A stretch of DNA of 64,000 nucleotides from an uncultured bacterium (GCA_963843795.1 CAWJLW010000006.1:2554375-2618374), one strand, 5' to 3'. Positions 2,054 through 64,000 are shown, counted from the stretch's first letter. Numbers and translations: made by a program. The notes: generated by a model from the sequence alone, not told the origin.

Positions 2054-2116
2054 GCCAAATCGTGCTTAAAACAGCCCTGCAAGTACTTGCTACCCTTCTT
2101 GTCGGGGCGTATTTTT

Positions 2117-3468
2117 ATGTTTAAAAAAGTTCTTATCGCCAATCGTGGCGAAATCGCCGTGCGCATTATTCGCGCCTGTCAGGAAATGAACATCGCCACC
2201 GTTGCGGTGCATTCCACCGCCGACGCCGATTCTCTGGCCGTCCAACTGGCCGATCAATCGGTGTGCATCGGGCCGCCTGCAGCCAAAGAATCGTATTTGT
2301 CCATTGCCAACATCGTTTCCGCTGCCGCCATCACCGGCGCCGAAGCGATTCATCCCGGCTACGGATTTTTGGCCGAAAACGCGTCGTTTGCCGACATTTG
2401 TTCGCAAGTCGGAATCGCCTTCATCGGGCCGACGCCGCGCGCCATCGACACGATGGGCAACAAAGCCGCGGCGCGCGAAGCGATGATGAAAGCCAATGTT
2501 CCTATTGTGCCCGGCACACCCGGAACCATTGCTGACGAACGCGCGGCTTTGAGTGCGGCGCGCGAAATCGGTTATCCGGTGATTATTAAAGCCAGCGCGG
2601 GCGGCGGCGGCAAGGGCATGCGCGTGGTGAAGGAAGAAAGCGAACTGGCGACGCAATTTTCGATGGCGCGCCAGGAAGCCGAGGCCGCGTTTGGCAACGG
2701 CGAAGTTTATATCGAGAAATATCTGATTCAACCGCGCCACATCGAAGTGCAGATTTTGGCCGACGCGCACGGCAACGTCGTTCATTTGGGCGAACGCGAT
2801 TGTTCGGTGCAAACCGCGCGACATCAGAAAATGATCGAAGAAGCGCCGTGTGCGTTTTTTCCCGAAGAAACGCGCAAAGCGCTGGGCGAAGCCGCTGTCG
2901 CCGGAGCCAAAGCTGTCGGTTACACCAACGCGGGCACGATTGAATTTCTGGTTTCGGCGACTGGCGAATTCTACTTCATGGAAATGAACACGCGCATTCA
3001 AGTCGAGCATCCGGTCACCGAACAAATCACTGGCATCGACTTGATTAAAGCGCAAATTCGCGTCGCGGCGGGCGAAGAACTTGGACGTCACGCAAGACGA
3101 CATCAGTTTCAGCGGCCATGCCATCGAATGCCGCTTGACCGCGGAAGACCCGGAAAAAAATTTCGCGCCCGCTTCGGGCACGGTCGAAAGCTTCGATGCG
3201 CCCGGCGGTTTGGGCGTGCGCGTCGATTCGCACCTGCGCAACGGTTATTTCGTGCCGCCATTTTACGATTCGCTGCTCGCCAAAATCATCGTTCACGCAC
3301 CGACGCGCGACGAAGCCATCGAGCGCATGAAACGCGCCTTGGGCGAAACCAAATTGGTCGGTTTGGCGACGACCAAAGATTATCATTTGAAGATTCTGGA
3401 CAACGAATATTTCGCAGCGCGGCGAAGTTTCGACCGACTTTTTGGCCCGTCGCATGGGCAGTAATTAA
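2117..3468 (+). CDS. accC: biotin carboxylase (two apparent single-base frameshifts near 3081 and 3414)
   Basis: [44 protein letters not shown]. The sequence continues in ORF 3081..3464 ([15 protein letters not shown]) and then a third frame ([12 protein letters not shown] 3468). Confidence 0.93.
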
Positions 3469-3484
3469 CTTCCGATTTCGATAA

Positions 3485-3516
3485 AAAATGCCCTGCAAGT
3501 ACTTGCAGGGCATTTT
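3485..3516. terminator. 32-bp perfect palindrome centred on GCAAGTACTTGC, terminator-like
   Basis: AAAATGCCCT-core-AGGGCATTTT immediately after accC. Confidence 0.6.
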
Positions 3517-3552
3517 CACGACACAAATTTAGAGCAACAGCACAACGCATTG

Positions 3553-3990
3553 ATGAGTATGAACAAACGACGTAGGCGCGAAGGACGCGATTTGGCCTTT
3601 CGCTTGATTTTTGGTTTAGACGTGGGCGGCGGCGCTTTGGACGACGCGTTGGACGCGATGCGCCAAAGCAGCGAATGCAGCAGTGAAGTGTGGGACTTTG
3701 GCAGCAGTCTGGGGCGCGGCGCGTGGGAGCGACGCGAAGAAGCCGATGTCGTGATTCGTCGTTTCGCCACCGGCTGGTCGCTGGAACGCATGGCCAACGC
3801 CGACCGCAATTTGCTGCGCTTGGCAATTTACGAAATCGCGCACCGCGACGATATTCCGCAAAGCGTCTCGATCAACGAAGCCGTCGAACTCGCCAAAACT
3901 TACTCGACAAATGAAAGCGCCAAATTCATCAATGGAATTCTGGGCAACTACGTCCGCAGCCGCGAAAGCGAAACCACAACCGCCGAATAA
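3553..3990 (+). CDS. nusB: transcription antitermination factor NusB
   Basis: RRRREGRDLAF, WSLERMANADRNLLRLAIYEI, SINEAVELAK, FINGILG. Confidence 0.95.
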   Translation: MSMNKRRRREGRDLAFRLIFGLDVGGGALDDALDAMRQSSECSSEVWDFGSSLGRGAWERREEADVVIRRFATGWSLERMANADRNLLRLAIYEIAHRDDIPQSVSINEAVELAKTYSTNESAKFINGILGNYVRSRESETTTAE

Positions 3991-4003: not shown

Positions 4004-4041
4004 CAAAAGCGCGGCTGCAAGTACTTGCAGCCGCGCTTTTG
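4004..4041. terminator. 38-bp perfect palindrome with core, terminator-like
   Basis: CAAAAGCGCGGCT-core-AGCCGCGCTTTTG after nusB. Confidence 0.65.
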
Positions 4042-4709: not shown

Positions 4710-4745
4710 AAAACGCGCCCTGCAAGTACTTGCAGGGCGCGTTTT
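4710..4745. terminator. 36-bp perfect palindrome with core, terminator-like
   Basis: AAAACGCGCCCT-core-AGGGCGCGTTTT after the Uma2 gene. Confidence 0.65.
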
Positions 4746-4771: not shown

Positions 4772-5620
4772 ATGCAATTATTGGATGGAAAAGCCACTGC
4801 GGCGCGCGTGCGCGAGCAAGTCGCGCAGGGCGTGGCTCAATTGAAACAACGTGGCGTGAATGTGGGTTTGGGTGTGGTTTTGGTCGGCGACGATCCGGCG
4901 AGTCGGGTTTATGTCGGCATGAAAGAGCGCGCTTGCGAGGCCGCTGGCATCAATAGCGTGTCGCACCGTCTGCCCGCTGATGCCACGCAAGAGCAAGTAC
5001 TTGCTGCGGTGCGCGAACTCAATGCGCGCGACGATATTCACGGAATTCTGGTGCAAGACCCGTTGCCCGATGGTTTGAACATCGACGAAGTGAACGCGCT
5101 CATCGACCCGCGCAAAGATGCCGATGGCGTGGGCGCGGTTTCGATGGGCAATTTAGTGCTGAACGAACCCGGTTTCGTCGCTTGCACCGCTGCCGGAATC
5201 GCCGAACTTCTGGATGCTTACGAACTCGATTTGAAGGGCAAAAATTGCGTGGTGATCGGGCGTTCGATTACCGTCGGCAAGCCCGCCGCGCTGTTGATGT
5301 TGCAGCGTCACGCGACGGTGACGATTTGTCATTCGCGCACGCAAAATTTGGCCGATGAAGTGCGGCGCGGCGATGTGGTGATTGCGGCAATTGGCAAAGC
5401 AGAATTTATCACGGGCGACATGATCAAGCCGGGCGCGATTGTGGTCGATGCCGGTTACAATCGTGTTGAAGGCCGTAAAGGCGATGTCGGTGATGTCGAG
5501 TGGGAAAGCGCGAAAGACAAAGCGTCTTACATCACGCCAGTTCCGGGCGGCGTCGGGCCGATGACGATTGCGATGTTGCTGAAGCAAACCCTGCAAGCCG
5601 CCGAACGGTTTGCTTCCTAA
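4772..5620 (+). CDS. folD: bifunctional methylene-THF dehydrogenase/cyclohydrolase
   Basis: MQLLDGKA, VGDDPAS.VYV..K, VIGRS..VGKP, ITPVPGGVGPMT. Confidence 0.96.
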   Translation: MQLLDGKATAARVREQVAQGVAQLKQRGVNVGLGVVLVGDDPASRVYVGMKERACEAAGINSVSHRLPADATQEQVLAAVRELNARDDIHGILVQDPLPDGLNIDEVNALIDPRKDADGVGAVSMGNLVLNEPGFVACTAAGIAELLDAYELDLKGKNCVVIGRSITVGKPAALLMLQRHATVTICHSRTQNLADEVRRGDVVIAAIGKAEFITGDMIKPGAIVVDAGYNRVEGRKGDVGDVEWESAKDKASYITPVPGGVGPMTIAMLLKQTLQAAERFAS

Positions 5621-10354: not shown

Positions 10355-12049
10355 ATGAAAGATAATCGTTTCGTCATTCGCCGCTGTTATTTTCAGCGTC
10401 CGCAAGTACTTGCAGGACTGTTTTTGCTGAGCGTCACGCCTGCTTTTGCACAGGAGGCCGCACCTGAAGCGCCACCTGCAAAAGCGCCGCCCGCAGAAGT
10501 GCCAAAAACAGAAGCACCCAAAGTGACAGCGCCCGACAGTGCTCCCAAGGTGAATGAAAAGCCGGCGGGCGCAAACACGCCCGTCGAAGCCGATGTCATC
10601 GCTTCCACAACTGCGTATAACGCCGGCTTGGAAGCTTTGAAGCGCAACGATTTGGACGCGGCGGGCGAACAGTTCGCGCGCGTGGTCGAGCTTTCGCCCA
10701 AAGACGTGTACGCACAAATGTTTTTGGGCTATGTACGCTTCAAACAAAATCGTTTGGATGAAGCGTTAACTTCATTGGAAGCAGCAAGACAGGGCGAAGT
10801 GCAGTTGCCGCCGAAGTCGCGCGCAGCGCTTTATAACAATTTGGGACTGACTTATTGGAATAAGCAGCAGCCCGAACCCGCCATCGAAGCTTATACCAAA
10901 GCGCTGGCCTTAGACCAAGATTCGGTCGATGTACGCTTTAATCTGGCTTCAGCTTATCTAGCGCAGCAGAACCCCGAAAAAGCACTGCCCTTGTTTCAAG
11001 ATTTGGCGCAAGACAATCCCAAAGATGCCGCTCTGCAAGACAGTCTGGGCTTGGCCTACGAGCGCGCCGGACAGTGGGGCAGCGCGCTGGGCGCTTACTC
11101 TAAAGCGCTGGCACTGGAGCCAAAAAATGCGACTTACACGCTGAATATGGCTTTGGCGTTGGAGAAAAGTAAGCGCGAAACCGATGCCGCTAAGTATTTG
11201 CGACAAACGTTGGAAATCGACCCGCAGAACACAACGGCCTTGTTGCATCTGGGCGATATTTTCATCGCGCGCGCGCGATGGGGCGATGCTCAAGATGTGC
11301 TATCCAAATACGTCGCCTTGAAACCCAACGATTTCGTGGGATGGAGCAATCTGGGCGTCGCCTATGACTACAACGCCAAATTCGATCAGGCCTTGGACGC
11401 TTATGCACAGGCCGCGCGTTTATCGCCCAACGACGCCAATATCAAGAACAATGTCGGACGCATTTATTACAAGCGCGGGCGTTTGGATGAAGCCGTAACC
11501 GCTCTCCGCGACGCGTTGACTTCGGAGCCGGGCAATTTGGACGCGCGCTACAATTTAGGCTTGGTTTTGGCCGCGCAAAACAAAAATGTCGAAGCCAGCA
11601 AGGAAATGCAAAGTGTCATCGTTTCTGCATCTTCCAAATTGCAGCGGGAAACCGATGAAGACAAAAAGAAACCGTTGCGCGCGCTCTTAGCCGTTACACG
11701 CGGCGCGCTGGCCGAAAGCTATCTCAAACAGGAATTATACGCCGACGCCGATGCCGAGCTGGGGCAATTATTGAAGCTCGATCCAAATAATATCGCTGCT
11801 TTAACCAATCGCGGCTACGCGCAGTATCACATCAAAAATTATAACGAAGCAGAAAAAACCTACCGCGATTTATTAAAGCTCGACCCGAATAATGCTTTTG
11901 CCTACAATAATTTGGGTGCGGTTTTGGAGGCGAAAAACCAGCGCGCTGCAGCACTGCAATCGTATCGTAAAGCCGTTCAGCTCAAAGCCGACTACGACGA
12001 AGCCAAAAGCAACGTCGAGCGCTTGACTCAAGCCACAGCCGTTGGTTAA
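10355..12049 (+). CDS. secreted tetratricopeptide-repeat protein
   Basis: Signal peptide ending AFA; many TPR units (YNNLG..Y..A...DP). Confidence 0.9.
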   Translation: MKDNRFVIRRCYFQRPQVLAGLFLLSVTPAFAQEAAPEAPPAKAPPAEVPKTEAPKVTAPDSAPKVNEKPAGANTPVEADVIASTTAYNAGLEALKRNDLDAAGEQFARVVELSPKDVYAQMFLGYVRFKQNRLDEALTSLEAARQGEVQLPPKSRAALYNNLGLTYWNKQQPEPAIEAYTKALALDQDSVDVRFNLASAYLAQQNPEKALPLFQDLAQDNPKDAALQDSLGLAYERAGQWGSALGAYSKALALEPKNATYTLNMALALEKSKRETDAAKYLRQTLEIDPQNTTALLHLGDIFIARARWGDAQDVLSKYVALKPNDFVGWSNLGVAYDYNAKFDQALDAYAQAARLSPNDANIKNNVGRIYYKRGRLDEAVTALRDALTSEPGNLDARYNLGLVLAAQNKNVEASKEMQSVIVSASSKLQRETDEDKKKPLRALLAVTRGALAESYLKQELYADADAELGQLLKLDPNNIAALTNRGYAQYHIKNYNEAEKTYRDLLKLDPNNAFAYNNLGAVLEAKNQRAAALQSYRKAVQLKADYDEAKSNVERLTQATAVG

Positions 12050-12194
12050 TTTTTGTTTCGCGTAGAAGATTAGAAATTTCTGGGAGAAAATTCCCGGCCG
12101 CAAGAGACTTGCGGAGCATATTTTCTTCTGCGTTTTCTGCGAAAATCTCTGCGCGGGCGTTTCTGAGCTGGCGCGAAATTCGTATCCCTGAACT

Positions 12195-13085
12195 ATGTTT
12201 TCATCTCTGGGCATTTTCGCAGCGCCGGGCAAGCCCAACGTTGGCCCGTTAGTGCGCGAACTGGTGACTTTAGCGCAGCGCCGCGATGTCGAGGTGCGTT
12301 TGCAGCCGGAAATCGCTGACCTCATCGACGCCGATCAATTGCGTGGGCGCAGCGAAGACCACATCGCGCGTAGCGACATTCTGGTCACATTCAGCGGCGA
12401 TGGCGGCGTGCTCAAAGCCGCGCGCGCCGCTGCTCCGCACAACACGCCGGTTTTAGCGGTTGATCTGGGCCGTTTGGGTTTTTTGTCTGCGGTGCGACCC
12501 AGCGACATCGAAGCCGATTTCGAGCGCGTGTGGCGCGGCGAATTCACCGTTCAAGATCGATTGATGCTGGACGCGCGCGTTCTGCGTCGCAACGATCTTA
12601 ACCAATGGCAGGAAGTCGGTGGCAGCATTGGTCTCAATGATGCCGTAGTTGCCAAAAGCGCGCTGGCGCGAATTCTACGTTTGTCGATCTCTCTTGAAGG
12701 CAGCTTAATCGCACAAACGCGCGCCGATGGATTAATTATCTCAACGCCGACCGGCTCAACCGCCTACGCTCTCGCAGCCGGTGGCCCGATTGTCAGTCCC
12801 GAAGTTCCACTGTTGCTCATCTGCCCGATTTGCGCGCACTCTATCGCGCAACGCCCTTTAGTTATCAGTCCGGATTCCGTCATTGACATCGACGCTGAAT
12901 GGGAAGGCGACGAAGTATCGCCGGAATTGCTGGAAGCGATGCTTACCATTGATGGACAAATCGGCGTGCGCTTAAAAAGCGGTGACCGCGTGCGCGTCGT
13001 GCGCTCGCCCTTGTGCGCACGTTTATTGCATTCGCCCGAATCATCGTTCTTCGCGCGTCTGCGCCAAAAACTGCACTGGATTTAA
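12195..13085 (+). CDS. nadK: NAD(+) kinase
   Basis: SGDGG, LGRLGFL, GLNDAV, ADGLIISTPTGSTAYALAAGGP. Confidence 0.95.
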   Translation: MFSSLGIFAAPGKPNVGPLVRELVTLAQRRDVEVRLQPEIADLIDADQLRGRSEDHIARSDILVTFSGDGGVLKAARAAAPHNTPVLAVDLGRLGFLSAVRPSDIEADFERVWRGEFTVQDRLMLDARVLRRNDLNQWQEVGGSIGLNDAVVAKSALARILRLSISLEGSLIAQTRADGLIISTPTGSTAYALAAGGPIVSPEVPLLLICPICAHSIAQRPLVISPDSVIDIDAEWEGDEVSPELLEAMLTIDGQIGVRLKSGDRVRVVRSPLCARLLHSPESSFFARLRQKLHWI

Positions 13086-17965: not shown

Positions 17966-17977
17966 TTTCCCGTAAAT

Positions 17978-53508: not shown

Positions 53509-53516
53509 ATTCAAAT

Positions 53517-54710
<1,194 letters not shown>

Positions 54711-54783
54711 AAAATAAACCGTTGTAAATAACTAATTACCAGAAAAATAACTCGTAAAGCAGTGCGTTGTCACTGCGTTTTCT

Positions 54784-55746
54784 ATGTGTTCTCCTGCTAC
54801 CGATGAAAATTTGACGCCGCAAGTACTTGCACCCGAACTTGCGCGAGAAGTTTCGCCCGAAAACGCAAACGAGGATACCAAACAAGATAATGCAAATTCC
54901 TCACCTTTGCCCGACAATTTGCTTAGCGCTGAAATTCCCGCTGAGGCAATTCCCATCGAAGCCGCGCAAGCACTTGCCGTGACTTCTGACAACGAAGCTA
55001 ATAACCGAGACATCGACCACGAACCAACTCCTGAAGAGTATGCCCAATGGGAAGCGATGTGGGGCGAAGGCGAAAATCAATTCACGCGCGTGGGACGCGC
55101 CGCCTGCACGCTGCTGGTCGGTGGCTTTTTGGCGTGGATGCAATTTCGCGCCATTTTCGATACCACTGTGCGCTGGAACGAATGGATTTGGTTCAGTGTG
55201 CTGGCGAATTTCCTCCTTCCTGCTGGCGTCGTGTGGCTTTTTTTCGCGCAAGGTTTGCGCCGGTTGAACTGGCTCAGCGACCATCGTTTAAACGCGTGGA
55301 ATTACGGCTGCAACTGGCAGTTTCGCCGTCACGCTAAAATCGCTCTGCTCGCTTTCGCAGTCTTGGCAATCCCGATGTGGTTTTTGTCGCGCGACGCGGG
55401 CACGCAAATTTTCTATCGCAATGCGTATTTTCCGCCCATTCATAATACCGCTGCCCTCTTGTGGCTTTTGGTCACCCTGATCATTTACATGGCGTGCTGG
55501 GAATGGTTTTTTCGTGGATTTTTGCTATTTGGCATGGCACAAGGTTTTGGGCCAATCGCCGCGATTGGTTTGCAAACCGTAATTTTCGGACTCGCCCACG
55601 CAGGAAAACCGCCGGTGGAAATGTGGTCGTCGTTTGGTGGTGGCTTAATTTTAGGCATACTTTGTTGGCGCGAAAAATCGTTCGTGCCCGCGTTTTTCAT
55701 TCACGCACTGATTCATGTCGCGTGGGCCGTAATGATTTTGAATTGA
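54784..55746 (+). CDS. CPBP (Abi/CAAX) intramembrane protease
   Basis: WEWFFRG, FGLAH.GKP..E, IHALIH. Confidence 0.85.
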   Translation: MCSPATDENLTPQVLAPELAREVSPENANEDTKQDNANSSPLPDNLLSAEIPAEAIPIEAAQALAVTSDNEANNRDIDHEPTPEEYAQWEAMWGEGENQFTRVGRAACTLLVGGFLAWMQFRAIFDTTVRWNEWIWFSVLANFLLPAGVVWLFFAQGLRRLNWLSDHRLNAWNYGCNWQFRRHAKIALLAFAVLAIPMWFLSRDAGTQIFYRNAYFPPIHNTAALLWLLVTLIIYMACWEWFFRGFLLFGMAQGFGPIAAIGLQTVIFGLAHAGKPPVEMWSSFGGGLILGILCWREKSFVPAFFIHALIHVAWAVMILN

Positions 55747-55756
55747 GGTTTCACTG

Positions 55757-56488
55757 ATGCGTTTTTCCACATTTTTGCTCGCTGCGCCATTGTTGTTAGC
55801 CGGTTGCGCTCGCAGCCCGGTCGGTGGCCCCACTAATCCGCAGGCCAACAACATTTTGAGCGTGAGTATCGCGGTTTCAGGCGTGGTCAATCCGGCTTAT
55901 ATTTACGATTTCGCTTTCGATGACGATGAAGATCGCACCGATGGGCCGGTCGCGCTCGCGGGCAGCAACAGCACTTACGCCAATGGCGTTACCGGCGGTT
56001 CATTCACGATTTTAGTGCGCTACACAGCAGGGCAATTCATCGCTTATCGCCGCACAATCAATTCCGACAACAGCGAAACCCTGGTGCGCGTTCCGAGCGC
56101 ATTCACCATTCCACCAACGGTCGTACAAGGCGATAAAACCATCAGTTTCGCTCTCAATCTGGATGCGACTTTGCCCGATGGCACGCGCTTGTTTCGCGGC
56201 TCGGACAACGGCATTCCGCGCCAGTTGGATGTCAACTTTGTGACCACTAACCAGATTAACATCGACCCTAATAACAATCGAATCAACACTTTCGACGCGT
56301 TAGGTAACCGCACCGGCGGCAGTTGGCTCACAATTACCAACACCAACCAACCCAAAATTGTCACGAACAGCCAGACCCTGACCGAGCCAACGGGCGATGT
56401 CACAAATTTCAGCAACTTGGATAGCACCGCAATCAATTCGCTCGATTTGACCGATTTCCGTATCGAAATTCAACGCAACTCGAATTAA
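55757..56488 (+). CDS. lipoprotein
   Basis: Lipobox LLLAGC; GAGG SD. Confidence 0.8.
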   Translation: MRFSTFLLAAPLLLAGCARSPVGGPTNPQANNILSVSIAVSGVVNPAYIYDFAFDDDEDRTDGPVALAGSNSTYANGVTGGSFTILVRYTAGQFIAYRRTINSDNSETLVRVPSAFTIPPTVVQGDKTISFALNLDATLPDGTRLFRGSDNGIPRQLDVNFVTTNQINIDPNNNRINTFDALGNRTGGSWLTITNTNQPKIVTNSQTLTEPTGDVTNFSNLDSTAINSLDLTDFRIEIQRNSN

Positions 56489-56581
56489 ATTGCAGAAGAT
56501 ATCGTAATTTTGCCTGAGATTAAATTGATTTCTTAGTAAAAAGTGTGCTGCAAGTACTTGCAGGTGTGGTGAACTGTTTTT

Positions 56582-57508
56582 ATGCAACTCATTCCGCTCG
56601 AATCGCTGATAATTTCGCCTTCCACCGAAAAGATCGACACGCTCAACGGTCAACCGCGCGTGCCGCAGTGGATGAAGCAAAAAACTGGCAAGGCGCGCCA
56701 GACCGCGCAAACCGGCGAAGTTTTGCACGGCCTCAATATCACGACCGTGTGCGAAGAAGCGCGCTGCCCGAATATCGGCGAATGCTGGAGCCATCGCACC
56801 GCGACGTTTATGATTGGTGGGGACAAATGTACGCGCGCCTGCGCTTTTTGCAACGTCTCGACCGCGCGGCCCGAAGCGCTCGATCAGTTCGAACCGGCGC
56901 GAGTGGCATTGGCTGCCAGCAAACTGGGCTTGAAATATGTCGTGATTACTAGCGTTGATCGCGACGATCTCAAAGATGGTGGCGCTGCGCACTGGGTAAA
57001 AACTATTGAAGCCGTGCGCCGCGAACTGCCGGACGCCAAAATCGAAATTCTCACGCCCGATTTTCGCGGCGATTGGGATGCGGTCTATACCGTCGCCGCG
57101 ACGCGCCCCGACGTTTACAATCACAACATCGAAACCGTGCCGCGTTTATATTCTACCGCGCGCAAAGGCTCCAAATACGCGCGTTCGCTGGAACTGCTGC
57201 GCCGCGTGAAAGAATTCGATGGCAATATCAAAGTTAAAAGCGGATTGATGGTTGGTTTGGGCGAAACCATTCCCGAAATAATTGAAGTGTTGAAAGATTT
57301 GCGCGCGCACGGCGTCGATTTCGTGACAATGGGCCAATATCTGCGTCCGAGCCCGCGCCACATCGCCTTAGAGCGTTATTATCATCCCGACGAGTTCGCG
57401 CATTTGAAAACCGAAGCGCAAAAAATGGGCTTTGCGATGGTGGCCAGCGGCCCGTTCGTGCGTTCGAGCTATCACGCGGGCGAAGATTTCGATGAAATGA
57501 ATTCGTAA
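56582..57508 (+). CDS. lipA: lipoyl synthase
   Basis: CEEARCPNIGEC, CTRACAFC, RSSYHA. Confidence 0.97.
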   Translation: MQLIPLESLIISPSTEKIDTLNGQPRVPQWMKQKTGKARQTAQTGEVLHGLNITTVCEEARCPNIGECWSHRTATFMIGGDKCTRACAFCNVSTARPEALDQFEPARVALAASKLGLKYVVITSVDRDDLKDGGAAHWVKTIEAVRRELPDAKIEILTPDFRGDWDAVYTVAATRPDVYNHNIETVPRLYSTARKGSKYARSLELLRRVKEFDGNIKVKSGLMVGLGETIPEIIEVLKDLRAHGVDFVTMGQYLRPSPRHIALERYYHPDEFAHLKTEAQKMGFAMVASGPFVRSSYHAGEDFDEMNS

Positions 57509-57570
57509 AAACGCGCGGCAAGTACTTGCAGCGCCTCCGCCACAGCTTTTTCTGCCTTAAACTGCGCGCC

Positions 57571-57999
57571 ATGAATATCTTTCTGGCTTTAATTGCGGGT
57601 GCGATTTTGCCGCTCCAAATCGGTATCAACGGTTCGCTGCGCACGGCTTTGGGCCAGCCCATTTTAGCCGCCTTCACTTCATTTCTGGTCGGGACGTGCG
57701 CATTGGGCGCGGTCAGTTTACTGGTGCGCGCCGCACCGGTCGCGGGCTTGGCGACGATTCCCGCTTGGATGTGGGTTGGCGGCGCACTGGGCGCGGTTTA
57801 CGTTTATCTGTCGATTTTTCTGGCGTCCAAATTAACCGCTGCGACTTTGGTCGGCTGCATTGTGGCCGGACAATTGAGCGCTTCGATGATCGTCGATCAT
57901 TTTGGCTGGCTCGGTTTTCCCCAGCATTCGATTTCGGCTGGCCGCATCGCGGGCGCAATTCTGCTGGGCGTGGGCGTTTATTGCATTCGCCGCTTTTGA
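57571..57999 (+). CDS. DMT-family (YdcZ/DUF606) transporter
   Basis: Q.GING.L, W.W.GG.LGA, GQL..SM.VDHFG. Confidence 0.88.
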   Translation: MNIFLALIAGAILPLQIGINGSLRTALGQPILAAFTSFLVGTCALGAVSLLVRAAPVAGLATIPAWMWVGGALGAVYVYLSIFLASKLTAATLVGCIVAGQLSASMIVDHFGWLGFPQHSISAGRIAGAILLGVGVYCIRRF

Positions 58000-58042
58000 A
58001 TCGTTGAGATTCAGTCCTGCAAGTACTTGCAGCGCGTGCTTT

Positions 58043-58714
58043 TCACGACAAAACCGGCTGCGCCACACAACAACCTTCTTCGCGCACGCAACGACACGCG
58101 AAAACGGCGCACAGCGCGCCCAAAGTCGGTGCCAGCAAATAAATCCACAACGCGTCCAGATGCCACGACATTAACGCCGGAGCGATGGAACGCGCCGGAT
58201 TCATCGACGCGCCGCAAATCGGCCCGGCAAACAAGGCTTCCAAAGCGATGACGCCACCAATCGCGATGCCCGCCGTGATGCCTTTTTCTTTCGCACCCGT
58301 CGAAACGCCCAAAATCACGAACATCAACATCGCCGTTAAAACGAATTCCAGAACGAACGATTGCCAAGCCGAACCTGCGGGTAAAGTCGCACCCAGAGTC
58401 AGGTTGGTGGGAAACAAAACGCGCAAAATCGCACTGGCCAAAAGTGCGCCTGCACATTGAGCGAAAACATAAGGCGCGACCAAACGCGCTTCAAAACGCC
58501 GCGCGGCGCAAAACGCGAGGGTCACGGCGGGATTGAGATGCGCGCCAGAAATATCGCCGACGGAGTAAATCATCGCCATCACAATCAAGCCAAAAGTCAA
58601 CGCGATGCCGACGTGCGACACCGTGCCGCCGCTGGTTTGATCGATGATAATCGCGCCCGTGCCCGCGAAAATCAAGCAAAACGTACCGATAAATTCTGCC
58701 GCCAGTTTTTTCAT
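58043..58714 (-). CDS. MIP-family aquaporin/aquaglyceroporin
   Basis: EFIGTF, SGAHLNPAVT, SMNPARS. Confidence 0.95.
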   Translation of the reverse strand: MKKLAAEFIGTFCLIFAGTGAIIIDQTSGGTVSHVGIALTFGLIVMAMIYSVGDISGAHLNPAVTLAFCAARRFEARLVAPYVFAQCAGALLASAILRVLFPTNLTLGATLPAGSAWQSFVLEFVLTAMLMFVILGVSTGAKEKGITAGIAIGGVIALEALFAGPICGASMNPARSIAPALMSWHLDALWIYLLAPTLGALCAVFACRCVREEGCCVAQPVLS

Positions 58715-58818
58715 TTCAATTGCTCTCCCATAACCAACTGAATCATTTTGCTTCTTCAAATTTAAGAGTTGGTTAATAAGCCGAAACGCCAGAAATGGTT
58801 TTCAAGTACTTGCAGTGC

Positions 58819-60543
58819 TTATTTGGAACGCAAAACATCGGGTACGAAATCTAAATCGCTGGCTTCGCGGATTGCCAGTTCAATCTGGTGCGCTAATACT
58901 TCGGGCGCAATCGGGCTTTGATAGTCTTCCAGCACGTCTTTCAGCGCCGCTTCAGTCGTCATTTTAGAAACTTTCACCAGTCGATAGACTTTTATCGCCA
59001 AAGTTTCCGCCGCGCCCGGCGTCAGTAAATTCGGCACGTAATCTTCAATTTCTGCGAAAAGATTTTCGTCCAATTCCAAATCGTGTCGTTTCAAAAGAGC
59101 TTTAATGAGATGAAAGCCTTCTTCGGGCGTCGTAGTGGGAAAGATTGGAATTTTTACATCGACACGTCCCGGACGCTTGAGATCGACTTCAATTAAATCA
59201 GGACGGCTCGAAGCCAAAATCCACACGATTTTGCCACGATTACGCGTGTTGCTCATTTCTTCGGCCAGCATCGAATAAATGCGGCCCGATAAACCGGCGT
59301 CATTATTTCCCGTATCGCGCCGCCCTAAAGATTGATCGGCTTCATCAACGAATACATAACAACGGCCCAGAGCGTGGAGCAGGCGAAAGATTTTTTCTAA
59401 ATTGCCTTCGGTCGAGCCGACCCATTTATCGCGAAAATTCTTCAATTTCACGACCGGAACGCCCGCTTCACCGGCCAGACATTCGACCATATAAGTTTTG
59501 CCCGTGCCGACCGGCCCACACAGCAGATAACCCATCGGCATCGCTTCCAAATCGTTCTGCTTCCACAGAGTGATGTCCTGACGCAGCCATTCCTTGATTT
59601 TTTCCTGTCCGTATAAATCGTCCAGAGTGCGCTTGGATTCGATGAATTCGATCAAGCCCGCGCAATCCTGCTCGACCAATTGTTTCTTGAGATGCGACAA
59701 ATCTTCTTCGCTCAAACTTTCGCGTTTGTATTCGGTTGTGCGCAGCAAATTCTCGGTTGCGGAAAGCGTTGCGCCCGCCAATTGTGCTGCGGGCACTTCC
59801 AACTGCTCGCGGTATTGACCGAGCGCGGTCGGAAATTGCGGCAGCATCCATTGCAGCGCGCGCTGCAATTCTTGGGGCGAAGGCAAGGGTACTTTCAACT
59901 GCGTGGCGCGCGTGTTGGTAGCCAAAAGTGGATGCAAATCGTTGAGATTTTCACAAATCAAAAACGTCGCCAAATCGTGTCCGGTCAAGAGCGGATCGCT
60001 CGACCATTCGCGCATCAGTGAAGCCAGCGCTGCCAAGTCGTAATCGTAATTGCCGCCCGGATTGGGCGCGACCAGATGCGCGGCGCGCACATAACAGCCG
60101 ACGCGCGTGCGCTCGCGGCCCAAGCGCTGCAAGTTGGCCGTATAGCGAAAATAGTGCGTCAAAGTTTCAACGGAAGGGCGCGGTTCGCGCGGCAGAATCG
60201 GCGTTTCCTTCCACGCCGGCCACTGCGAAAAAATCGGCCCACCCTTTTCGACGCGCACGCCATTGCCCAAGTCATAAGACAAAACTACATCGAAGCGCGA
60301 TAAAAGTACTTGTTGGAGCCATTGGTAAAGCGCGCCGAGGGCAAAGCCACCATCGGCCTGCGGCAAAACGACACGATCTTCGACGTTGCCGAAGAGAATG
60401 AATTGATTGGTCGCACCACTTTCGTAGGAAATTACCAGTTCGCGCGCCCAATCGGGCAAATTGTGGCCTAACGAAGAAAGCGCCGATTGCGGCATCGGCG
60501 CGGGTTGCGGGACCAGAGGCGTATCGAGAAAAGGTTGCGGCAT
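58819..60543 (-). CDS. classical-clade AAA+ ATPase
   Basis: Walker A GPVGTGKT, pore loop KWVG, Walker B FVDEAD, SRH ASSRPDLIEVDLKRPGRVD. Confidence 0.92.
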   Translation of the reverse strand: MPQPFLDTPLVPQPAPMPQSALSSLGHNLPDWARELVISYESGATNQFILFGNVEDRVVLPQADGGFALGALYQWLQQVLLSRFDVVLSYDLGNGVRVEKGGPIFSQWPAWKETPILPREPRPSVETLTHYFRYTANLQRLGRERTRVGCYVRAAHLVAPNPGGNYDYDLAALASLMREWSSDPLLTGHDLATFLICENLNDLHPLLATNTRATQLKVPLPSPQELQRALQWMLPQFPTALGQYREQLEVPAAQLAGATLSATENLLRTTEYKRESLSEEDLSHLKKQLVEQDCAGLIEFIESKRTLDDLYGQEKIKEWLRQDITLWKQNDLEAMPMGYLLCGPVGTGKTYMVECLAGEAGVPVVKLKNFRDKWVGSTEGNLEKIFRLLHALGRCYVFVDEADQSLGRRDTGNNDAGLSGRIYSMLAEEMSNTRNRGKIVWILASSRPDLIEVDLKRPGRVDVKIPIFPTTTPEEGFHLIKALLKRHDLELDENLFAEIEDYVPNLLTPGAAETLAIKVYRLVKVSKMTTEAALKDVLEDYQSPIAPEVLAHQIELAIREASDLDFVPDVLRSK

Positions 60544-60610
60544 AAGAATTTACTGACTTGTTATCTGGCTCATAATCAAAAAATGGATGGACTGTGTGTT
60601 TTTACTTTGA

Positions 60611-60644
60611 AAAAACGCCCTGCAAGTACTTGCAGGGCGTTTTT
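60611..60644. terminator. 34-bp perfect palindrome with core between the PspA-like and AAA genes
   Basis: AAAAACGCCCT-core-AGGGCGTTTTT. Confidence 0.65.
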
Positions 60645-60661
60645 GCGACTTTGTTAGCAAT

Positions 60662-61417
60662 TCACTCAAACGTCGCCGTCGGTCCCATCTGCTTGGCGGT
60701 GTCTTTGGCGACCGGCGCGGCGGTCGGCGAAGGCGAATCCAGAGCGATGCCTTCTTTGGCGGCGAAATCGGCCAGCGCCTGGTCGGCCATTGCTTCCTGC
60801 TCCGATTCTTTCATATTAATGCCAGTCATATCTAAACCGCCACGCGCCACACGCGAACGACCGGCAGCTTTTTCGCGCTCCTCCTGCACCATTTCTTCGA
60901 GTCGGTTCAACGTGTCGCCGCTGCCGCCAATCGTTGAAATCATGCCCGAAGCCATTTCCATCATTTCTGCCGTTGACTTTTGCACCTTCATATCGCCGAT
61001 AGCGTATTTCAACTTATCGATTTTATCGCGCGCGATTTCAACACTCACGCCACGCGCTTTTTCTAAATCTTTATAAGTGGTTTCGGCGACTTCCAACTGC
61101 TCGCGATTTTCTTTTAATTGACTTTGTACCTGTTGCAAATCGAGCGCGAAATTACCCGCCATATCGCGGTTGCCCGCTTTGAGATGAGCGGCGGTTTTGG
61201 CGCGCAGTTCGCGTTCGCGCGTTTCCAAATTTTTGACTTGCGTCATCAATTTTTCGCACAACGCGGCGTGCGAGGCCAAACCTTGATTATATTGCGCGAT
61301 TTGTTTGCGCAAGTTTTCTTTTTCGACTTCGAGCAATGCTTCGGGATTACTGCGCTCGGCATTGGACACGAACATCCCGAAAAAACCTTTGATTAAATTT
61401 CCCAATCGCTTGAACAT
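60662..61417 (-). CDS. PspA/IM30 (ESCRT-III-like) family protein
   Basis: Amphipathic MFKRLGNLIKG, NPEALLE, long coiled coil, A...LKAG..D.A. Confidence 0.85.
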   Translation of the reverse strand: MFKRLGNLIKGFFGMFVSNAERSNPEALLEVEKENLRKQIAQYNQGLASHAALCEKLMTQVKNLETRERELRAKTAAHLKAGNRDMAGNFALDLQQVQSQLKENREQLEVAETTYKDLEKARGVSVEIARDKIDKLKYAIGDMKVQKSTAEMMEMASGMISTIGGSGDTLNRLEEMVQEEREKAAGRSRVARGGLDMTGINMKESEQEAMADQALADFAAKEGIALDSPSPTAAPVAKDTAKQMGPTATFE

Positions 61418-61483
61418 TCGCCTTCTCCCTCACAAAAACAGATCGTAAAAACTTTGCGTTTCCGTCCTATTATTATCGCAAAT

Positions 61484-62443
61484 TCAGTGGCCTAACGTAG
61501 TTGGCTCTTGCGCCTCGCCCCCACTTAAGCGCGCTTTGTGATGACGCTCGCCATCAGACATTATGCCATCGCCCGCTGAACTTTTGTTGTCGTCGTGAGG
61601 ATTGTGTTCCAACGCACTGGCTTCGAGCGCACTCAGTTCCTGCAATTGCTCGCTCGCCGTTTTGGTGCGCCATAACACGCTTTCCAAATCGGCCAACACG
61701 CGCTCCGGTGCGCGCGCCCGCAACTGGTCTTGCACCAAGCCAAACGTATCTTCCAACAATTCCAGCTGCTGCAAAAGCACATCGCGCATCTGCGAAGAAC
61801 GCTCTGCCCAATCGCTGCGCCGCTGTAAAACCTCGCGGCGATTTTTCAATAATTGCTGGCGTCCAAAATCTGCTTCGTGCGCCAATTGGTTTTCTAACTG
61901 CGCGATTTCGCGCGCGTAACCATTGCGAATTCGCGCGACCATAGGCACGATTTGATTTTGCGTAACTGGCGGCGCCCCTGCGGTTTGCGCATCCGATAAC
62001 ATGGCGTGCGCTTGTTCCAAAGCGCTGCGAATTTCCTGCTCGCGCGCGCCAAATTCCAGCCATTTTTCCAACAAATCATCCAATTTATCGACGATGGGAC
62101 GAAACCATTGCGGATCGTCATCGATCTTCGCGGCGACACTCTCGCGCACATTTTCCAAACGAATCCAACGCGCCTGCATCACCGCCGAAAGTTGAGAGAG
62201 ATAAAGACGTTTCACAACCGCTCGCCGTTCGTGCTCGCCTTCTTCGTTGCGCTCTGCGAGGCGCGCGCGATACCAGCTGGAATTAGGCACCAAAACCAGA
62301 TACAAACCTTCCAGAGCCACGCCCAGAAGCAAAGGTCGCACATCTGTGGTCGCCGCTGCCAGCGTCGCGGTGGTCGCCAGCGCCACGACATTGACGTTTT
62401 CTTTGAACGCAGCCCAAAATCTGTTCATCGCTTCATTTTGCAA
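61484..62443 (-). CDS. membrane-anchored coiled-coil protein
   Basis: Two N-terminal hydrophobic segments followed by a helical coiled coil. Confidence 0.7.
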   Translation of the reverse strand: MQNEAMNRFWAAFKENVNVVALATTATLAAATTDVRPLLLGVALEGLYLVLVPNSSWYRARLAERNEEGEHERRAVVKRLYLSQLSAVMQARWIRLENVRESVAAKIDDDPQWFRPIVDKLDDLLEKWLEFGAREQEIRSALEQAHAMLSDAQTAGAPPVTQNQIVPMVARIRNGYAREIAQLENQLAHEADFGRQQLLKNRREVLQRRSDWAERSSQMRDVLLQQLELLEDTFGLVQDQLRARAPERVLADLESVLWRTKTASEQLQELSALEASALEHNPHDDNKSSAGDGIMSDGERHHKARLSGGEAQEPTTLGH

Positions 62444-62472
62444 TAATCAGCATCTGCAAGTACTTGCACGCT

Positions 62473-63978
62473 TTACAATCCATACAAATCGCCGTACTTA
62501 CCTTGCAAGTACTTGCAGTAAGGTTCGATATCCAAAGCGCGGCCCGTCGCGCGCTCGACCAATTCCGCCGCCGTCCACACGCTGCCGCTTTGATACACAT
62601 TATCACGCAACCATCCCAAAAGTGCGCTGTATTCGCCGCGCGCAATATCGTTGGAAATTTGCGGTTGAGCTTTTAAGGCGGCTTCATAGAATTGAGCCGA
62701 TAAAATGTTGCCGAGCGTATAGCCTTGAAACGCGCCGCCAATCGTGCCGCCAAACCAATGTACATCTTGCAAACAACCGTCGCTGTCATCATCGGACGCA
62801 ACACCTAAATCGGAACGGTAACGTTCGCGCCATGCATCGGGCAAGTCGGAAACTTCGAGCGAACCGTCCAACAAGGCCAACTCTAAATCGAAACGAATCA
62901 TGACGTGCAGATTGTAAGTCACTTCGTCGGCATCGGTGCGAATGAGGGACGGCGCCACGCGATTGATGGCGCGATACCAATCGTCAACGGAAACATCACC
63001 AAGTTGAGACGGAAATTGATTTTGCAAATCCGAAAACCAGTGTGCCCAGAAACCTCGCGAGCGACCGACCAAATTTTCCCACAAGCGCGATTGCGCTTCG
63101 TGAACGCCCGAACTGGTGCCATTGGCCAGCGGCGTGGCTTCGTAATCGAGATTGATATTCTGCTCATAAAGCGCGTGCCCAGCTTCATGAAACGTCGAAA
63201 ACAAGGCTTCGGTCAGGTCGTCGTCTTTAACGCGCGTAGTGATGCGCACATCGCCCAGAGAAAACTTGGTCATGAACGGATGCGGCGTTTCGTCCTGACG
63301 ACCACGCGTGAAATCGTAGCCAAAACGGCCGATCACGGTTTCGGCCCACGCGATTTGTTCGGCACCGGGATAATTGCGACCTAAAAACGCCGTTTTCGGC
63401 TCGTCTTTTTCGGCAATTTGTGCGACCATCGGCACCAAACGTTCACGCAGCGGATCGAACATCTTGCGCACGCTTTCGACCGTCATGCCTTCATCGGAAA
63501 AATCGATTAGCGGATCGGCGATGTGCGCGTATCCGGGATAAAAGTTTGCCAATTCGCGCGATAAATCCAAGGTGCGCCTGAAATCGTCTTCGACGCTTTT
63601 CCAATCGTTATCGGGCCGCGCGCGCGTCCAATTTTGATACGCTTCGCTGAGATGATCGCTCAAGCGTGCTTCAAATTCTGCCGGAACCCGCGTCGCGCGC
63701 TCCCATTGTCGTTGCGTGACGCGAATCAAAGCCGCTTCGAAATTTGCGGGGTCGCTATCTTTTTCCAGCGGCTGCAATTCATCCAACCAGCGCCCAACTT
63801 GCGGATCAATAAATTTTTCGTGTGCCAAACGATTCAAGGTCGATAGCTGACGACCACGCGCAGGGGCGCCGCCGGGCGGCATATAGGTCGATTGATCCCA
63901 GTGCAAAAGCGCGCTCGCGCCGTGCAAATCATCGACTTCGCGCAGACGATTTTTCAAGTTTTCCAAAGTTGTATTCAT
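62473..63978 (-). CDS. M32 (carboxypeptidase Taq) metallopeptidase
   Basis: LL.WDQ, HPF, HEAGHALYEQ, HEAQSR, IRTDADE, GCLQDVHW. Confidence 0.95.
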   Translation of the reverse strand: MNTTLENLKNRLREVDDLHGASALLHWDQSTYMPPGGAPARGRQLSTLNRLAHEKFIDPQVGRWLDELQPLEKDSDPANFEAALIRVTQRQWERATRVPAEFEARLSDHLSEAYQNWTRARPDNDWKSVEDDFRRTLDLSRELANFYPGYAHIADPLIDFSDEGMTVESVRKMFDPLRERLVPMVAQIAEKDEPKTAFLGRNYPGAEQIAWAETVIGRFGYDFTRGRQDETPHPFMTKFSLGDVRITTRVKDDDLTEALFSTFHEAGHALYEQNINLDYEATPLANGTSSGVHEAQSRLWENLVGRSRGFWAHWFSDLQNQFPSQLGDVSVDDWYRAINRVAPSLIRTDADEVTYNLHVMIRFDLELALLDGSLEVSDLPDAWRERYRSDLGVASDDDSDGCLQDVHWFGGTIGGAFQGYTLGNILSAQFYEAALKAQPQISNDIARGEYSALLGWLRDNVYQSGSVWTAAELVERATGRALDIEPYCKYLQGKYGDLYGL

Positions 63979-64000
63979 AATGTTCGCTGCAAGTACTTGC

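Follow-up and report, generated by a model that had tools for sequence, protein, structure and literature searches.

The window, a 64,000-nucleotide stretch of DNA (64 kb), comes from a member of the Abditibacteriaceae (Armatimonadota), with homologues named Abditibacterium or Abditibacteriaceae. Among its genes are accC, nusB, folD, recN, recG, hemB, cobA/hemD, and purM, and an Rfam scan of the window adds three tRNAs and nothing else. A 12-bp perfect palindrome, GCAAGTACTTGC (here called the word), occurs in 45 exact copies at positions 2079..64000, the number reported in the first-pass annotation, compared to 0 in 100 shuffles. By our own gene calls, 33 copies are intergenic and 12 lie in coding sequences, close to the 32 and 13 given before. 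The earlier statement that the word marks almost every gene boundary goes too far: it is found at 30 of 55 boundaries, in 30 of the 49 spacers that are 12 bp or longer, and in 1,622 of 3,088 spacers genome-wide, about half. The variants, put at over a dozen, shrink to six one-mismatch copies (51 matches when up to one mismatch is allowed). The extended consensus around the window copies is AAA-n-gcgCT-GCAAGTACTTGC-AGcgc-n-TTT. The flank extension claimed for most copies holds where one flank suffices (at least one of T and A in 37 of 45 copies) and fails for both flanks together (22 of 45). The features are collected in Table 1.

Table 1. Positions of the word and of word-bearing hairpins in the window
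Feature	Position	Strand	Details
Terminator-like hairpin between accC and nusB	3485..3516		A-run, GC stem, 12-mer tip with GUAC loop, T-run; -22.3 kcal/mol, z -7.2
Terminator-like hairpin 3' of nusB	4004..4041		Arms complementary 13 bp past the 12-mer
Terminator-like hairpin ahead of folD	4710..4745		12-bp extension; -32.3 kcal/mol, z -7.0
Copy in folD, translated QVLA	4993..5004	+	Extended hairpin absent, z +1.3
Copy in coding sequence close to recN 3' end	14881..14892	+	Gene calls
Hairpin copy	16545..16576		10-bp extension
Copy in recG, variable N-terminal part, LQVLA	18469..18480	+	Orthologue alignment
Copy in recG, PQVLA	19333..19344	+	Gap-free alignment with most family orthologues
Bidirectional terminator-like hairpin, convergent genes	22287..22320		11-bp extension; folds on both strands, z -5.6 and -6.2
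Exact copy, then two-mismatch copy, head to tail	28575..28598		Within complementary GC arms
Hairpin copy	32597..32628		10-bp extension
Hairpin copy	34385..34416		10-bp extension
Longest perfect palindrome of the window	47354..47413		12-mer with 24-bp arms
Hairpin copy	53473..53508		12-bp extension
Hairpin copy	60611..60644		11-bp extension
Other copies in coding sequences	10402, 25739, 30242 (hemB), 34052 (cobA/hemD), 40392 (purM), 48230, 54819, 62505 (span 10402..62516)		Gene calls
Six one-mismatch variants	13428, 29796, 38461, 41388, 54966, 58802 (span 13428..58813)		Mismatch scan

The genome holding the window (G000; 4.3 Mb, 11 contigs, 92% complete) shows the same enrichment on 11 of 11 contigs. 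The count against Markov and synonymous nulls proposed at the outset gives 2,567 copies, whereas an order-5 Markov model built on the masked genome predicts 7.4. Coding sequences hold 756 of these (29%), and ∼70% are intergenic. Divergent spacers (238 of 465) and tandem spacers (1,100 of 2,179) carry the word at similar rates. Both flanks are perfect around 2,567 of the 3,241 AGTACT sites, and 13 exact head-to-tail doubles occur. An assembly artefact is ruled out by a match in a public run, by the respect for reading frames, and by related words in independently assembled relatives; one contig of that run, which is perhaps the source sample, aligns to window positions 7777-8273 and is identical over the copy at 8216 (a single site). 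An 18-mer scan of genome contigs shows, among the matches listed, seven single copies in unrelated genomes, which have no bearing on the wider distribution. Our literature searches found no published description of an AGTAC-core word in Abditibacteriaceae.

Copies arise by base substitution where the protein or the spacer tolerates it. The 756 genic copies of G000 compare to 1 to 10 in synonymous shuffles (an excess of >70-fold) and are distributed over the three frames as 494/146/116, with no frameshift. At 74 of 95 aligned coding sites there is no gap within 9 nt, and gaps lie near 22% of coding sites compared to a background of 8 to 10%. Amino acid identity at the sites is 24 to 43%, compared to 59 to 60% for their genes, and the codons are variable. 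Flanks shared between coding copies average 6.94 nt versus 6.82 nt under a Markov null, an absence of excess that speaks against copy-paste. Constrained genes hold fewer copies, the density going from 0.33 per kb down to 0.13 per kb over the quintiles of codon score, and the tetrapeptide QVLA occurs 565 times, compared to 24 to 47 for control tetrapeptides. In the relative G009, the dialect reaches 0.61 copies per kb in genes, not far below its overall 0.75 per kb.

As the word is self-complementary, most strong terminator-like hairpins have incorporated it as their tip: 553 of the 781 predicted from the sequence of G000 carry it there. This use of many spacer copies goes beyond the first-pass annotation. 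Between convergent genes, the arms extend by 9.4 bp on average. Coding copies show arm complementarity no greater than that of shuffled flanks and no stable fold.

The sites are spread more evenly than expected, with a coefficient of variation of the spacing of 0.53 to 0.76 versus 0.87 to 0.94 in five genomes and control hexamers showing no under-dispersion. One metagenome pair is under-dispersed as well; the AAAAGTACTTTT loci are not significant. Fewer new copies appear near existing ones: the density of coding copies is 0.14 to 0.18 per kb at ≤1 kb from a spacer copy and 0.32 to 0.47 at 1.5 to 5 kb, which holds across strata. Copies that have formed are retained, recently acquired DNA lacks them, and the chromosome is filled to a density of about one per 1 to 1.7 kb. 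Conservation was compared between other same-dialect relatives, G000 itself being without a close relative, in comparisons that are not independent: at a nucleotide identity of 79%, 88 of 102 pairwise site comparisons are identical (86%) versus 11% for other 10-mers, with 18 of 30 in the G009 clade (controls, 13 to 17%) and 8 of 14 in the CAAGTACTTG pair L277/L287 (controls, 27%). The word is absent from IS-rich islands, an eCIS cluster, 16S, and 48 of 48 tRNA/tmRNA genes, and stretches of 26 kb without any site occur in G000. Outside island-rich bins, the density along contig C6 is 85 to 113 per 150 kb, with no dip at the GC-skew turning point (91, 91, and 95 per 150 kb; the terminus is inferred from skew). 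No strand polarity is seen: the word of G000 is symmetric, and in the relative G006, one contig with largely uniform skew has 70 single half-sites in forward and 61 in reverse orientation. The active process that had been proposed to make or keep the site is thus supported by the coding excess over synonymous shuffles, the under-dispersed spacing, and the site conservation.

The suggested survey of related genomes shows that 7 of 27 family genomes hold thousands of copies of an AGTAC-core word of their own and that 20 are motif negative. The word of the window, which the first-pass annotation had treated by itself, is one of several lineage dialects, at least six on one AGTAC core, and dialect words are found in metagenome loci too. 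On either side the words are extended by 3 to 9 bases, and A/T tracts and graded flanks accompany them. At the recG codons of the copy at 19333..19344, G009 and G019 have their own dialect, TCGAGTACTCGA, with the centre shifted by 2 nt. Two lineages show a fixed 18-bp GTAC-to-GTAC half-site distance (GTAC-N14-GTAC), G006 in 115 of 116 pairs and L275 in 8 pairs, and hybrid sites with noncomplementary arms retain this geometry. The 24-mer of G006 has an arm-spacer-arm layout, begins composite small repeats, and also takes the form of hybrids of two dialects, one of which sits at an island edge in G000; rare 24-mers turn up in motif-negative genomes too. On the methyltransferase tree (a single gene with weak deep support), dialects group into small clades but also reappear on other branches, and motif presence is patchy on the RecG and ComEC trees. 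Most sister genomes have GTAC purged, and the motif-negative sisters G017 and G003 live without any such word. A 58-kb viral contig bears the G006 word at about host density, with no obvious reader candidate among 35 of its ORFs in a Pfam search. Viral scans give mostly single copies (80 of 119 loci and 80 of at least 134 loci); four low-GC viral contigs with the word two or more times are taken as unrelated, showing no similarity to G000 proteins among the loci examined.

The proposed search for co-distributed methyltransferase, competence, or DNA-binding genes came out negative for all those tested. ComEC is found in 27, ComEA in 25, and DprA in 25 of 27 family genomes, and G000 has a type IV pilus locus and 40 proteins fitting the prepilin pattern. 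The 20 motif-negative genomes have the competence genes just as often, so these do not discriminate; the genomes without a DprA match are motif-negative G017 (84% complete) and motif-positive G001 (63% complete). MutL is present in 25 of 27 genomes, and the distribution of ComEC, ComEA, DprA, and MutL does not follow the motif. G000 contains one beta-class N6/N4 methyltransferase, with M.RsrI and M.BceJIV as the closest solved relatives. As a candidate writer or reader, this enzyme, present in 15 motif-negative genomes, tracks neither presence nor dialect, and its putative recognition residues do not change with dialect. The observed/expected ratio (O/E) of GTAC is 0 to 0.17 in 12 of the 15 motif-negative genomes with an orthologue and 0.79 to 0.88 in 3 of 5 without, a contrast that links the loss of GTAC to the enzyme only weakly, as it rests on one clade and has exceptions in G016 (0.16), G002 (0.34), and G003 (0.58). 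Five GTAC-poor genomes outside the family have no close orthologue; the methyltransferase is therefore not the general cause of GTAC loss. It is at best a weak lead to the writer or reader. Genus g2 commonly has a second beta-class methyltransferase that G000 lacks and that fails to track the trait; a C5 methyltransferase has no match in G000. A TetR reader is rejected by 0 PF00440 matches in G000 (92% complete), with the control positive in 13 of 14 genomes. Tandem-AP2 proteins occur in 7 of 7 positive and 11 negative genomes, with no single paralogue tracking the trait. Y1 matches, sought for a RAYT, occur in 4 of 5 relatives, with none in G006 and two in motif-negative G017, and the one RAYT-like gene of G000 is flanked by its own GTAG-type repeats, unlike the word. 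A search for R.PabI gave 0 of 27 family genomes, with the control silent as well.

The word behaves like HIP1 and the uptake sequences, a comparison already drawn in the first-pass annotation that fits; by membership, it is not HIP1, DUS/USS, REP, or an SlmA site. With HIP1 (GCGATCGC) and alternate cyanobacterial palindromes, as PMC4390886, PMC5861425, PMC13756078, and 10.1101/2024.09.10.611283 describe them, it shares an excess of hundreds-fold, a density of about one per kb, and occurrence in three frames and spacers. Further common features are retention between relatives, a four-base methylase-type core, differently flanked variants, over-representation in all frames and noncoding DNA (15- to 300-fold for HIP1), and regular spacing, which for HIP1 is a fitted long-range periodicity (PMC5861425) and here is under-dispersion. 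HIP1, also palindromic, raises transformation in a way that depends on methylation, according to 10.1101/2024.09.10.611283. In contrast to HIP1, the core is GTAC, the words span 10 to 24 bp in another phylum, are patchy in one family, and change within a genus; the G000 dialect is concentrated in spacers and terminator tips, and a cognate methyltransferase is only putative. CGATCG is depleted in G000 (O/E 0.2), and the host is not a cyanobacterium. Like the DUS of Neisseriaceae and the USS of Pasteurellaceae, the words reach thousands of copies by point mutation, with a conserved core and dialects (PMC7811141, PMC12616744, 10.1101/2025.10.24.684340, PMC13020248). Terminator use, a frame bias of genic copies, flanks rich in A/T, fairly even spacing, the presence of competence genes, and the absence of the word from new islands and rRNA complete this likeness; these traits are described for USS/DUS in PMC7811141 and 10.1101/2025.10.24.684340. 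The G006 half-site preceded by A (AAGTACGGT) equals the Hin-USS AAGTGCGGT at 8 of 9 bases, in one dialect only and maybe by chance. The word is a perfect palindrome in a different host family and not one of the known nonpalindromic 9- to 10-mers. As most dialects are self-complementary, one copy suffices for a terminator tip, unlike with USS; one dialect also lies on separate methyltransferase-tree branches, and a receptor here is only hypothetical. REP/BIME elements with their RAYT are likewise species specific, abundant, and palindromic and occur in spacers and terminators (PMC2817692), but the word is also abundant in genes (29% of copies), is made by substitution, has unshared flanks, and lacks a cognate RAYT, so the REP-like option of the first-pass annotation falls away. 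The SlmA-binding sequence GTGAGTACTCAC is a 12-bp palindrome with the same AGTACT centre (PMC3020112); E. coli has ∼50 such sites, kept out of the terminus and with a TetR protein as their reader, compared to 2,567 copies, no terminus gap, and no TetR match here. Chi and KOPS are excluded by the lack of strand polarity along the replichore in G000 and G006.

We put at even chances the reading of the 12-mer as a lineage dialect of an AGTAC-core "self" tag of the HIP1 and uptake-sequence kind, accumulating by biased DNA uptake or recombination; this same estimate covers, jointly, the terminator role as a probable later co-option of the tag. The reader would be two-fold symmetric, would bind double-stranded DNA over a graded footprint of ∼12 to 34 bp, and would favour word-bearing DNA in natural transformation, at binding/uptake or at recombination. 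Site-bearing fragments would replace site-less ones by molecular drive, which would plateau once most fragments have a site, and a change or swap of the reader would lead to a new dialect. More speculatively, the central GTAC may be methylated by the orphan adenine methyltransferase of the family, as HIP1 is. Some observations speak against such a tag. The large share of AGTACT sites with both flanks perfect and the fixed half-site geometry suit a cytoplasmic dimer equally, the G006 word is present on a viral contig, and even spacing of ∼1 kb is also predicted by a repair model (PMC4390886).

That Elhai-type model, unlikely in our judgment, has a methylated GTAC core and a sequence-specific nickase steer mismatch repair such that the strand with the better word wins; two rounds would fix the palindrome, and gain would end at about one site per repair tract (∼1 kb). 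It accounts for palindromy, substitution origin, saturation near 1 kb, and the viral contig, and the frequent MutL, the beta-class methyltransferase of G000, and the purging of GTAC in motif-negative genomes with its orthologue agree with it. The published form (PMC4390886) extends a methylase site by only one base per side, compared to the 3 to 9 graded bases with A/T tracts seen here; moreover, the methyltransferase follows neither presence nor dialect, the GTAC contrast stems from one clade with exceptions, and no nickase was identified. A site for an abundant dimeric chromosome-organizing protein (nucleoid, condensin loading, or division coupling), with a foothold per 1 to 2 kb, sites kept by selection, and dialects following protein changes, is quite unlikely. 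Two-fold symmetry, the GTAC-N14-GTAC geometry kept even in hybrid sites, even spacing, and the 8 of 12 bases shared with GTGAGTACTCAC (PMC3020112) are what such a protein would produce, but the TetR N-terminal domain is absent from G000, the density does not drop at the GC-skew turning point, tandem-AP2 proteins occur in positive and negative genomes alike, G017 and G003 live without the word, and 26-kb site-free stretches are tolerated.

It is improbable that the word is a REP-like element or tiny mobile repeat, or the crossover site of one, dispersed by a transposase or site-specific recombinase: the genic copies lie in three frames without frameshift, most aligned sites are indel free, flanks are not common to the copies, the RAYT-like gene has GTAG-type repeats, and Y1 matches are lacking in G006 and present in motif-negative G017. 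The intergenic majority, the 13 head-to-tail doubles, the arm-spacer-arm 24-mer of G006 with its dialect hybrids and composite repeats, and the raised frequency of gaps near coding sites would fit such an element. A primarily RNA-level signal, either a preferred terminator stem-loop with a GUAC loop or the site of an RNA-binding protein, is largely refuted as the sole cause and hardly credible. The 553 hairpins, the 9.4-bp arms between convergent genes, and the stable folds argue for it; coding copies have no stable fold and still exceed the synonymous null >70-fold, genes carry the G009 dialect at close to its overall density, and divergent spacers carry the word about as often as tandem ones.

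Extending the self-tag reading, we tentatively consider, while rating it doubtful, an independent system by which DNA is recognized as self, lying outside cyanobacteria, Neisseriaceae, and Pasteurellaceae. Its reader, symmetric and specific for a methylated GTAC core, would switch flank specificity, or be exchanged between lineages, fast enough for genus-internal barcodes, with hundreds of proteins and most terminators rewritten each time and word-less sisters driven to purge GTAC. To our knowledge, sequence-specific uptake is established in two families only, and the uptake sequences known to us are all nonpalindromic. The function and reader of HIP1 have been an open question for thirty years. 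Unlike cyanobacteria, this one small family has sister species with and without a word, no fewer than six dialects, and core-purged lineages, and tracing presence/absence and residue co-variation through its genomes should lead directly to the reader. The word reshapes the proteome (QVLA) and most terminators and, as a species-level tag, lends itself to contig binning and to tracing the origin of islands and mobile elements. The five densest loci of G000 are ordinary metabolic genes.

The 12-bp palindrome GCAAGTACTTGC, centered on AGTACT, forms a real and actively maintained system in G000, the genome containing the window. The window holds 45 exact copies, the number given in the first-pass annotation, compared to 0 in 100 shuffles. 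One-mismatch variants number 6 there, short of the dozen or more that had been reported. A genome-wide count against a Markov null, suggested in the same annotation, bears out the enrichment: across G000 (4.30 Mb, 11 contigs) the word is the most frequent 12-mer, with 2,567 exact copies and an expectation of 7.4 under an order-5 Markov model of the masked genome. One-mismatch words reach 506 (47 expected under the same-genome order-5 model), two-mismatch words 371 (244 expected), and three-mismatch words 1,534 (1,559 expected). Contig C6 shows 47 to 83 copies per 100 kb, except in its first bin (30) and final 23 kb (0). The copy at 8216 is crossed without any difference by a contig from a public run, which may be the source sample. 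Named homologues of one G000 protein come from Abditibacterium utsteinense, Abditibacteriaceae, and Armatimonadota, which places G000 in the family Abditibacteriaceae.

Gene calls from our own caller (3,482 genes) are approximate, and the assembly contains frameshifts. By these calls, 756 of the 2,567 copies lie within coding sequences and 7 at contig ends; the spacers that hold the others are tandem for 1,239 copies, convergent for 297, and divergent for 268. Of the 3,088 spacers that measure 12 bp or more, 1,622 carry a copy, as do 30 of 55 gene boundaries in the window; the word thus marks many boundaries, not almost every one as had been claimed. Where genes converge, the palindrome continues into its flanks for a mean of 9.4 bp, preceded by an A-run and followed by a T-run, a layout predicted to act as an intrinsic terminator in both directions, with a GUAC loop. 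Terminator-like hairpins are a secondary use of the word, its core being present in 553 of 781 strong hairpins of this kind in G000. No extra arm complementarity is seen at the coding copies, which keep a weak form of the spacer flank preference (controls are small for two of the three frames). All three frames are used (494 xQVLA, 146 xKYLx, and 116 ASTC). Ten synonymous shuffles yield 1 to 10 coding copies, compared to 756 observed; QVLA occurs 565 times in the proteins, compared to 24 to 47 for six control tetrapeptides, and the word encodes 459 of 528 scored occurrences. Apparent frameshifts at 3085-3087, ∼42630, ∼53090, and ∼54240 of the window interrupt accC, purF, citrate synthase, and an aminotransferase; they are probably indels of the assembly, since matching contigs are one base shorter at 3085-3087.

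Copies originate by substitution. In codon alignments of G000 with its relatives G001, G006, and G009, 74 of 95 coding sites are gap-free out to 9 nt, and the recG copy at 19333 also aligns ungapped. Gapped sites (21/95) exceed the 8 to 10% background, and amino acid identity is 24 to 43% at word sites compared to 59 to 60% over the genes, so the coding sites are permissive positions. The flanks of coding copies resemble those of other copies no more than a positional Markov null predicts (1 match of at least 16 nt, with 0.4 expected); the excess among spacer copies is modest (63, with 1 expected). For one gene, samples from 47 loci show each lineage's own variant of the word at the same few codon positions.

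Once made, copies are retained. Between same-dialect relatives, the site is identical in 88 of 102 comparisons, compared to 11% for other 10-mers; two further sets show 18 of 30 (13 to 17%) and 8 of 14 (27%). These comparisons involve relatives at 76 to 84% nucleotide identity, and the pairs are nonindependent, many coming from one gene. Spacing is saturated at about one site per 1 to 1.7 kb. Its coefficient of variation is 0.73 in G000, 0.65 to 0.76 in G009, 0.58 in G006, 0.53 in G012, 0.64 in G001, and 0.63 in the loci L277/L287, all exceeded by random spacing (0.87 to 0.94). Under-dispersion is not significant in loci bearing the dialect AAAAGTACTTTT and absent from seven hexamer control tests. 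Gaps above 5 kb make up 1.7% in G000, compared to 3.6 ± 0.3% under a gene-aware null. In-gene density is 0.14 to 0.18 per kb where a spacer copy lies less than 1 kb away and rises to 0.32 to 0.47 at distances of 1.5 to 5 kb, an effect that persists across codon-score and gene-end-distance strata; five control hexamers show a flat density. Same-gene pairs less than 500 bp apart are in slight excess (45, with 34.5 expected), which runs against simple repulsion. The excess of coding copies over synonymous shuffles, retention between relatives, and even spacing uphold the earlier proposal that an active mechanism creates or retains the site.

The word is missing from newly acquired DNA. On C6, the two word-free stretches of 26 kb correspond to IS-rich islands, one of which carries a type I restriction methylase; the initial 30 kb of C3, likewise word-free, consists of a contractile-injection gene cluster. 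The word is also absent from the 16S gene (0 copies) and from 48 of 48 tRNA/tmRNA genes of G000, and its density shows no dip at the GC-skew turning point. A run of 289 A residues adjoining an IS3-type transposase (G000:C6:529517) is probably an assembly artifact.

Among related genomes, whose survey had been proposed, dialects sharing the AGTAC core do occur. The exact 12-mer has 0 to 3 copies in each of 60 relatives. Sampled DNA shows CAAAGTACTTTG in the congener G001, TCGAGTACTCGA in G009, G015, and G019, the looser (C/T)GAGTACTC(G/A) in G012, and AGTACGGTCGA in G006. RAGTACTY reaches 2,695 to 4,371 copies in six family members and at most 481 in the other 395 of 401 phylum genomes. G006 holds 1,317 + 1,370 AGTACGGT half-sites and 833 copies of AGTACG-N12-CGTACT; of 187 sampled forward half-sites, 115 have their partner at a single constant distance, 1 has it at a different one, and 71 are unpartnered. 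Together these counts make 7 of 27 family genomes motif-positive. The positives fall in two genera, with two negatives, G003 and the G012 sister G017, lying between or next to them in trees whose deep nodes are weak (the ComEC tree is a quick one). Of 67 metagenome loci, 27 were kept, each with a 61 to 80% orthologue of the family methyltransferase, a beta-class N6/N4 orphan enzyme. They show AAAAGTACTTTT (7 loci), TCGAGTACTCGA (3), CAAGTACTTG (2), loose GGAGTACTC (4), ATGAGTACTCAT (1, three sites only), paired AAAGTACGCC (2), and bare AGTACT with mixed flanks at a spacing of about 220 to 270 bp (3); one further locus is a weak case and four lack a word. L275 has 8 AAAGTACGCC pairs at 18 bp, the G006 distance. 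Dialects turn over within the family: AGTACT at G000 sites is retained in 3 of 17 cases in G001, 2 of 43 in G009, none of 35 in G006, and none of 14 in negative genomes. Words of foreign dialects that occur in G000 are concentrated on C2 and near C6:2.96 Mb.

Coordinates of features associated with the word, its dialects, and word-free DNA
Feature	Location	Remark
RAYT-like Y1 transposase	L037:1050-2000 (G000:C6:752058)	inverted GTAG-type repeats on flanks
Extracellular contractile injection system cluster (sheath, tube, baseplate, Pvc16, AAA ATPase)	G000:C3:2600-27300 (L201, L202)	word-free
Hybrid 24-mer, one G006-type and one L275-type arm	G000:C6:517601-517624	edge of 26-kb motif-free island
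Hybrid 24-mers, G006-type arm and L275-type arm	G017:C3:5338 and C63:6000	

The word would be recognized by a symmetric reader of double-stranded DNA. The system is of the HIP/uptake-sequence kind and belongs to none of the described families, with a putative reader and function; the earlier statement that the 12-mer matches neither HIP1, DUS, nor USS stands. Descriptions of the 12-mer, five dialect words, or abditibacterial or armatimonad palindromes were not found in the freely available literature, main texts and abstracts only; supplementary k-mer tables from studies of HIP or terminators may contain these words. Transformation-linked drive ranks first, with about an even chance of being correct, because the traits match descriptions of USS/DUS and because palindromic HIP1 increases transformation, according to 10.1101/2024.09.10.611283. 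Substitution origin, retention, saturation, absence from new DNA, terminator use, and dialects are shared with USS/DUS as described in PMC7811141, PMC12616744, PMC13020248, and 10.1101/2025.10.24.684340. Comparison further drew on PMC4390886, PMC5861425, and PMC13756078 for HIP, PMC3020112 for the SlmA site, PMC2817692 for REP/RAYT, and PMC11380664.

A ratchet by methyl-directed repair predicts much of the same pattern as transformation-linked drive and is unlikely; so does a chromosome-organizing protein binding the word, which is slightly less likely still. A mobile repeat is improbable and an RNA signal hardly credible, since both are contradicted by the copies in coding sequences.

Candidate machinery occurs throughout the family: ComEC is encoded in 27, and ComEA, DprA, and MutL each in 25, of 27 family genomes. 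In G000 there is also a type IV pilus locus, and 40 proteins fit a prepilin pattern. As for the proposed search for codistributed genes, none of those tested tracks the motif. G000 encodes one N6/N4 methyltransferase and one Y1 transposase and has no match for a C5 methyltransferase or for a TetR N-terminal domain, though the latter is present in 13 of 14 control genomes. Only two more enzymes came from a motif screen, a type I enzyme on an island and one of Eco57I/MmeI type. Among enzymes of solved structure, the N6/N4 enzyme is nearest to M.RsrI, whose target is GAATTC, then to MboIIA and M.BceJIV. Orthologues, intact or broken, occur in 22 of 27 family genomes, with identical putative recognition residues in all. 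The observed/expected ratio of GTAC, measured in 9- to 66-kb samples per genome, is 0 to 0.17 in 12 of 15 negative genomes with the enzyme (0.18, 0.33, and 0.58 in the other three), 0.79 to 0.88 in 3 of 5 without it (the other two have 0.16 and 0.34), and 0.45 to 0.83 in positive genomes with their own word masked. This contrast, which comes from one clade, gives only a hint that GTAC loss is tied to the enzyme.

GTAC is nearly absent from the genera g2 and g5 of this family, from families f11 and f34, and the genome G027 (0 to 5 in 9- to 62-kb samples), and RAGTACTY often numbers 0 to 15 per genome in these groups. The methyltransferase of G020, a g2 genome (L080), clusters with genus g1 enzymes apart from g2, which suggests acquisition by transfer. 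The GTAG-type repeat GTAGGGCGC has 45 copies in G000. Two small AP2-like-domain proteins (L328:5486-6031 and L329:5447-5962) are kept in 18 of 27 family genomes. The unrelated nonpalindromic 8-mer CAGCCACG is overused in the g2 clade of G007, G016, and G018 (L066, L067, L077, L024, L093, and L170), with 29 copies in 47 kb of G007 compared to about 2 expected; its spacing is not significantly even, and it is possibly a Chi-like or other tag.

In G006 (L105-L124), composite small repeats open with a half-site followed by GGGTGCCC-hairpin-GGGCGGATACT, a layout suggestive of a small element inserting in the middle of the 24-mer. HIP1 sites are insertion points for small dispersed repeats. A 58-kb viral contig (L354-L357) bears the G006 word at about host density; it encodes a major capsid protein, ParA/ParB, and a resolvase, and one large open reading frame matches NUDIX and ADP-ribosyltransferase domains. 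Low-GC viral contigs (L484-L486, L491, L503, L504, L511, L512, and L548), which show no similarity to G000 proteins, repeat GTGCAAGTACTTGCAC, in L484 within a few bases of predicted start codons in an operator-like arrangement.
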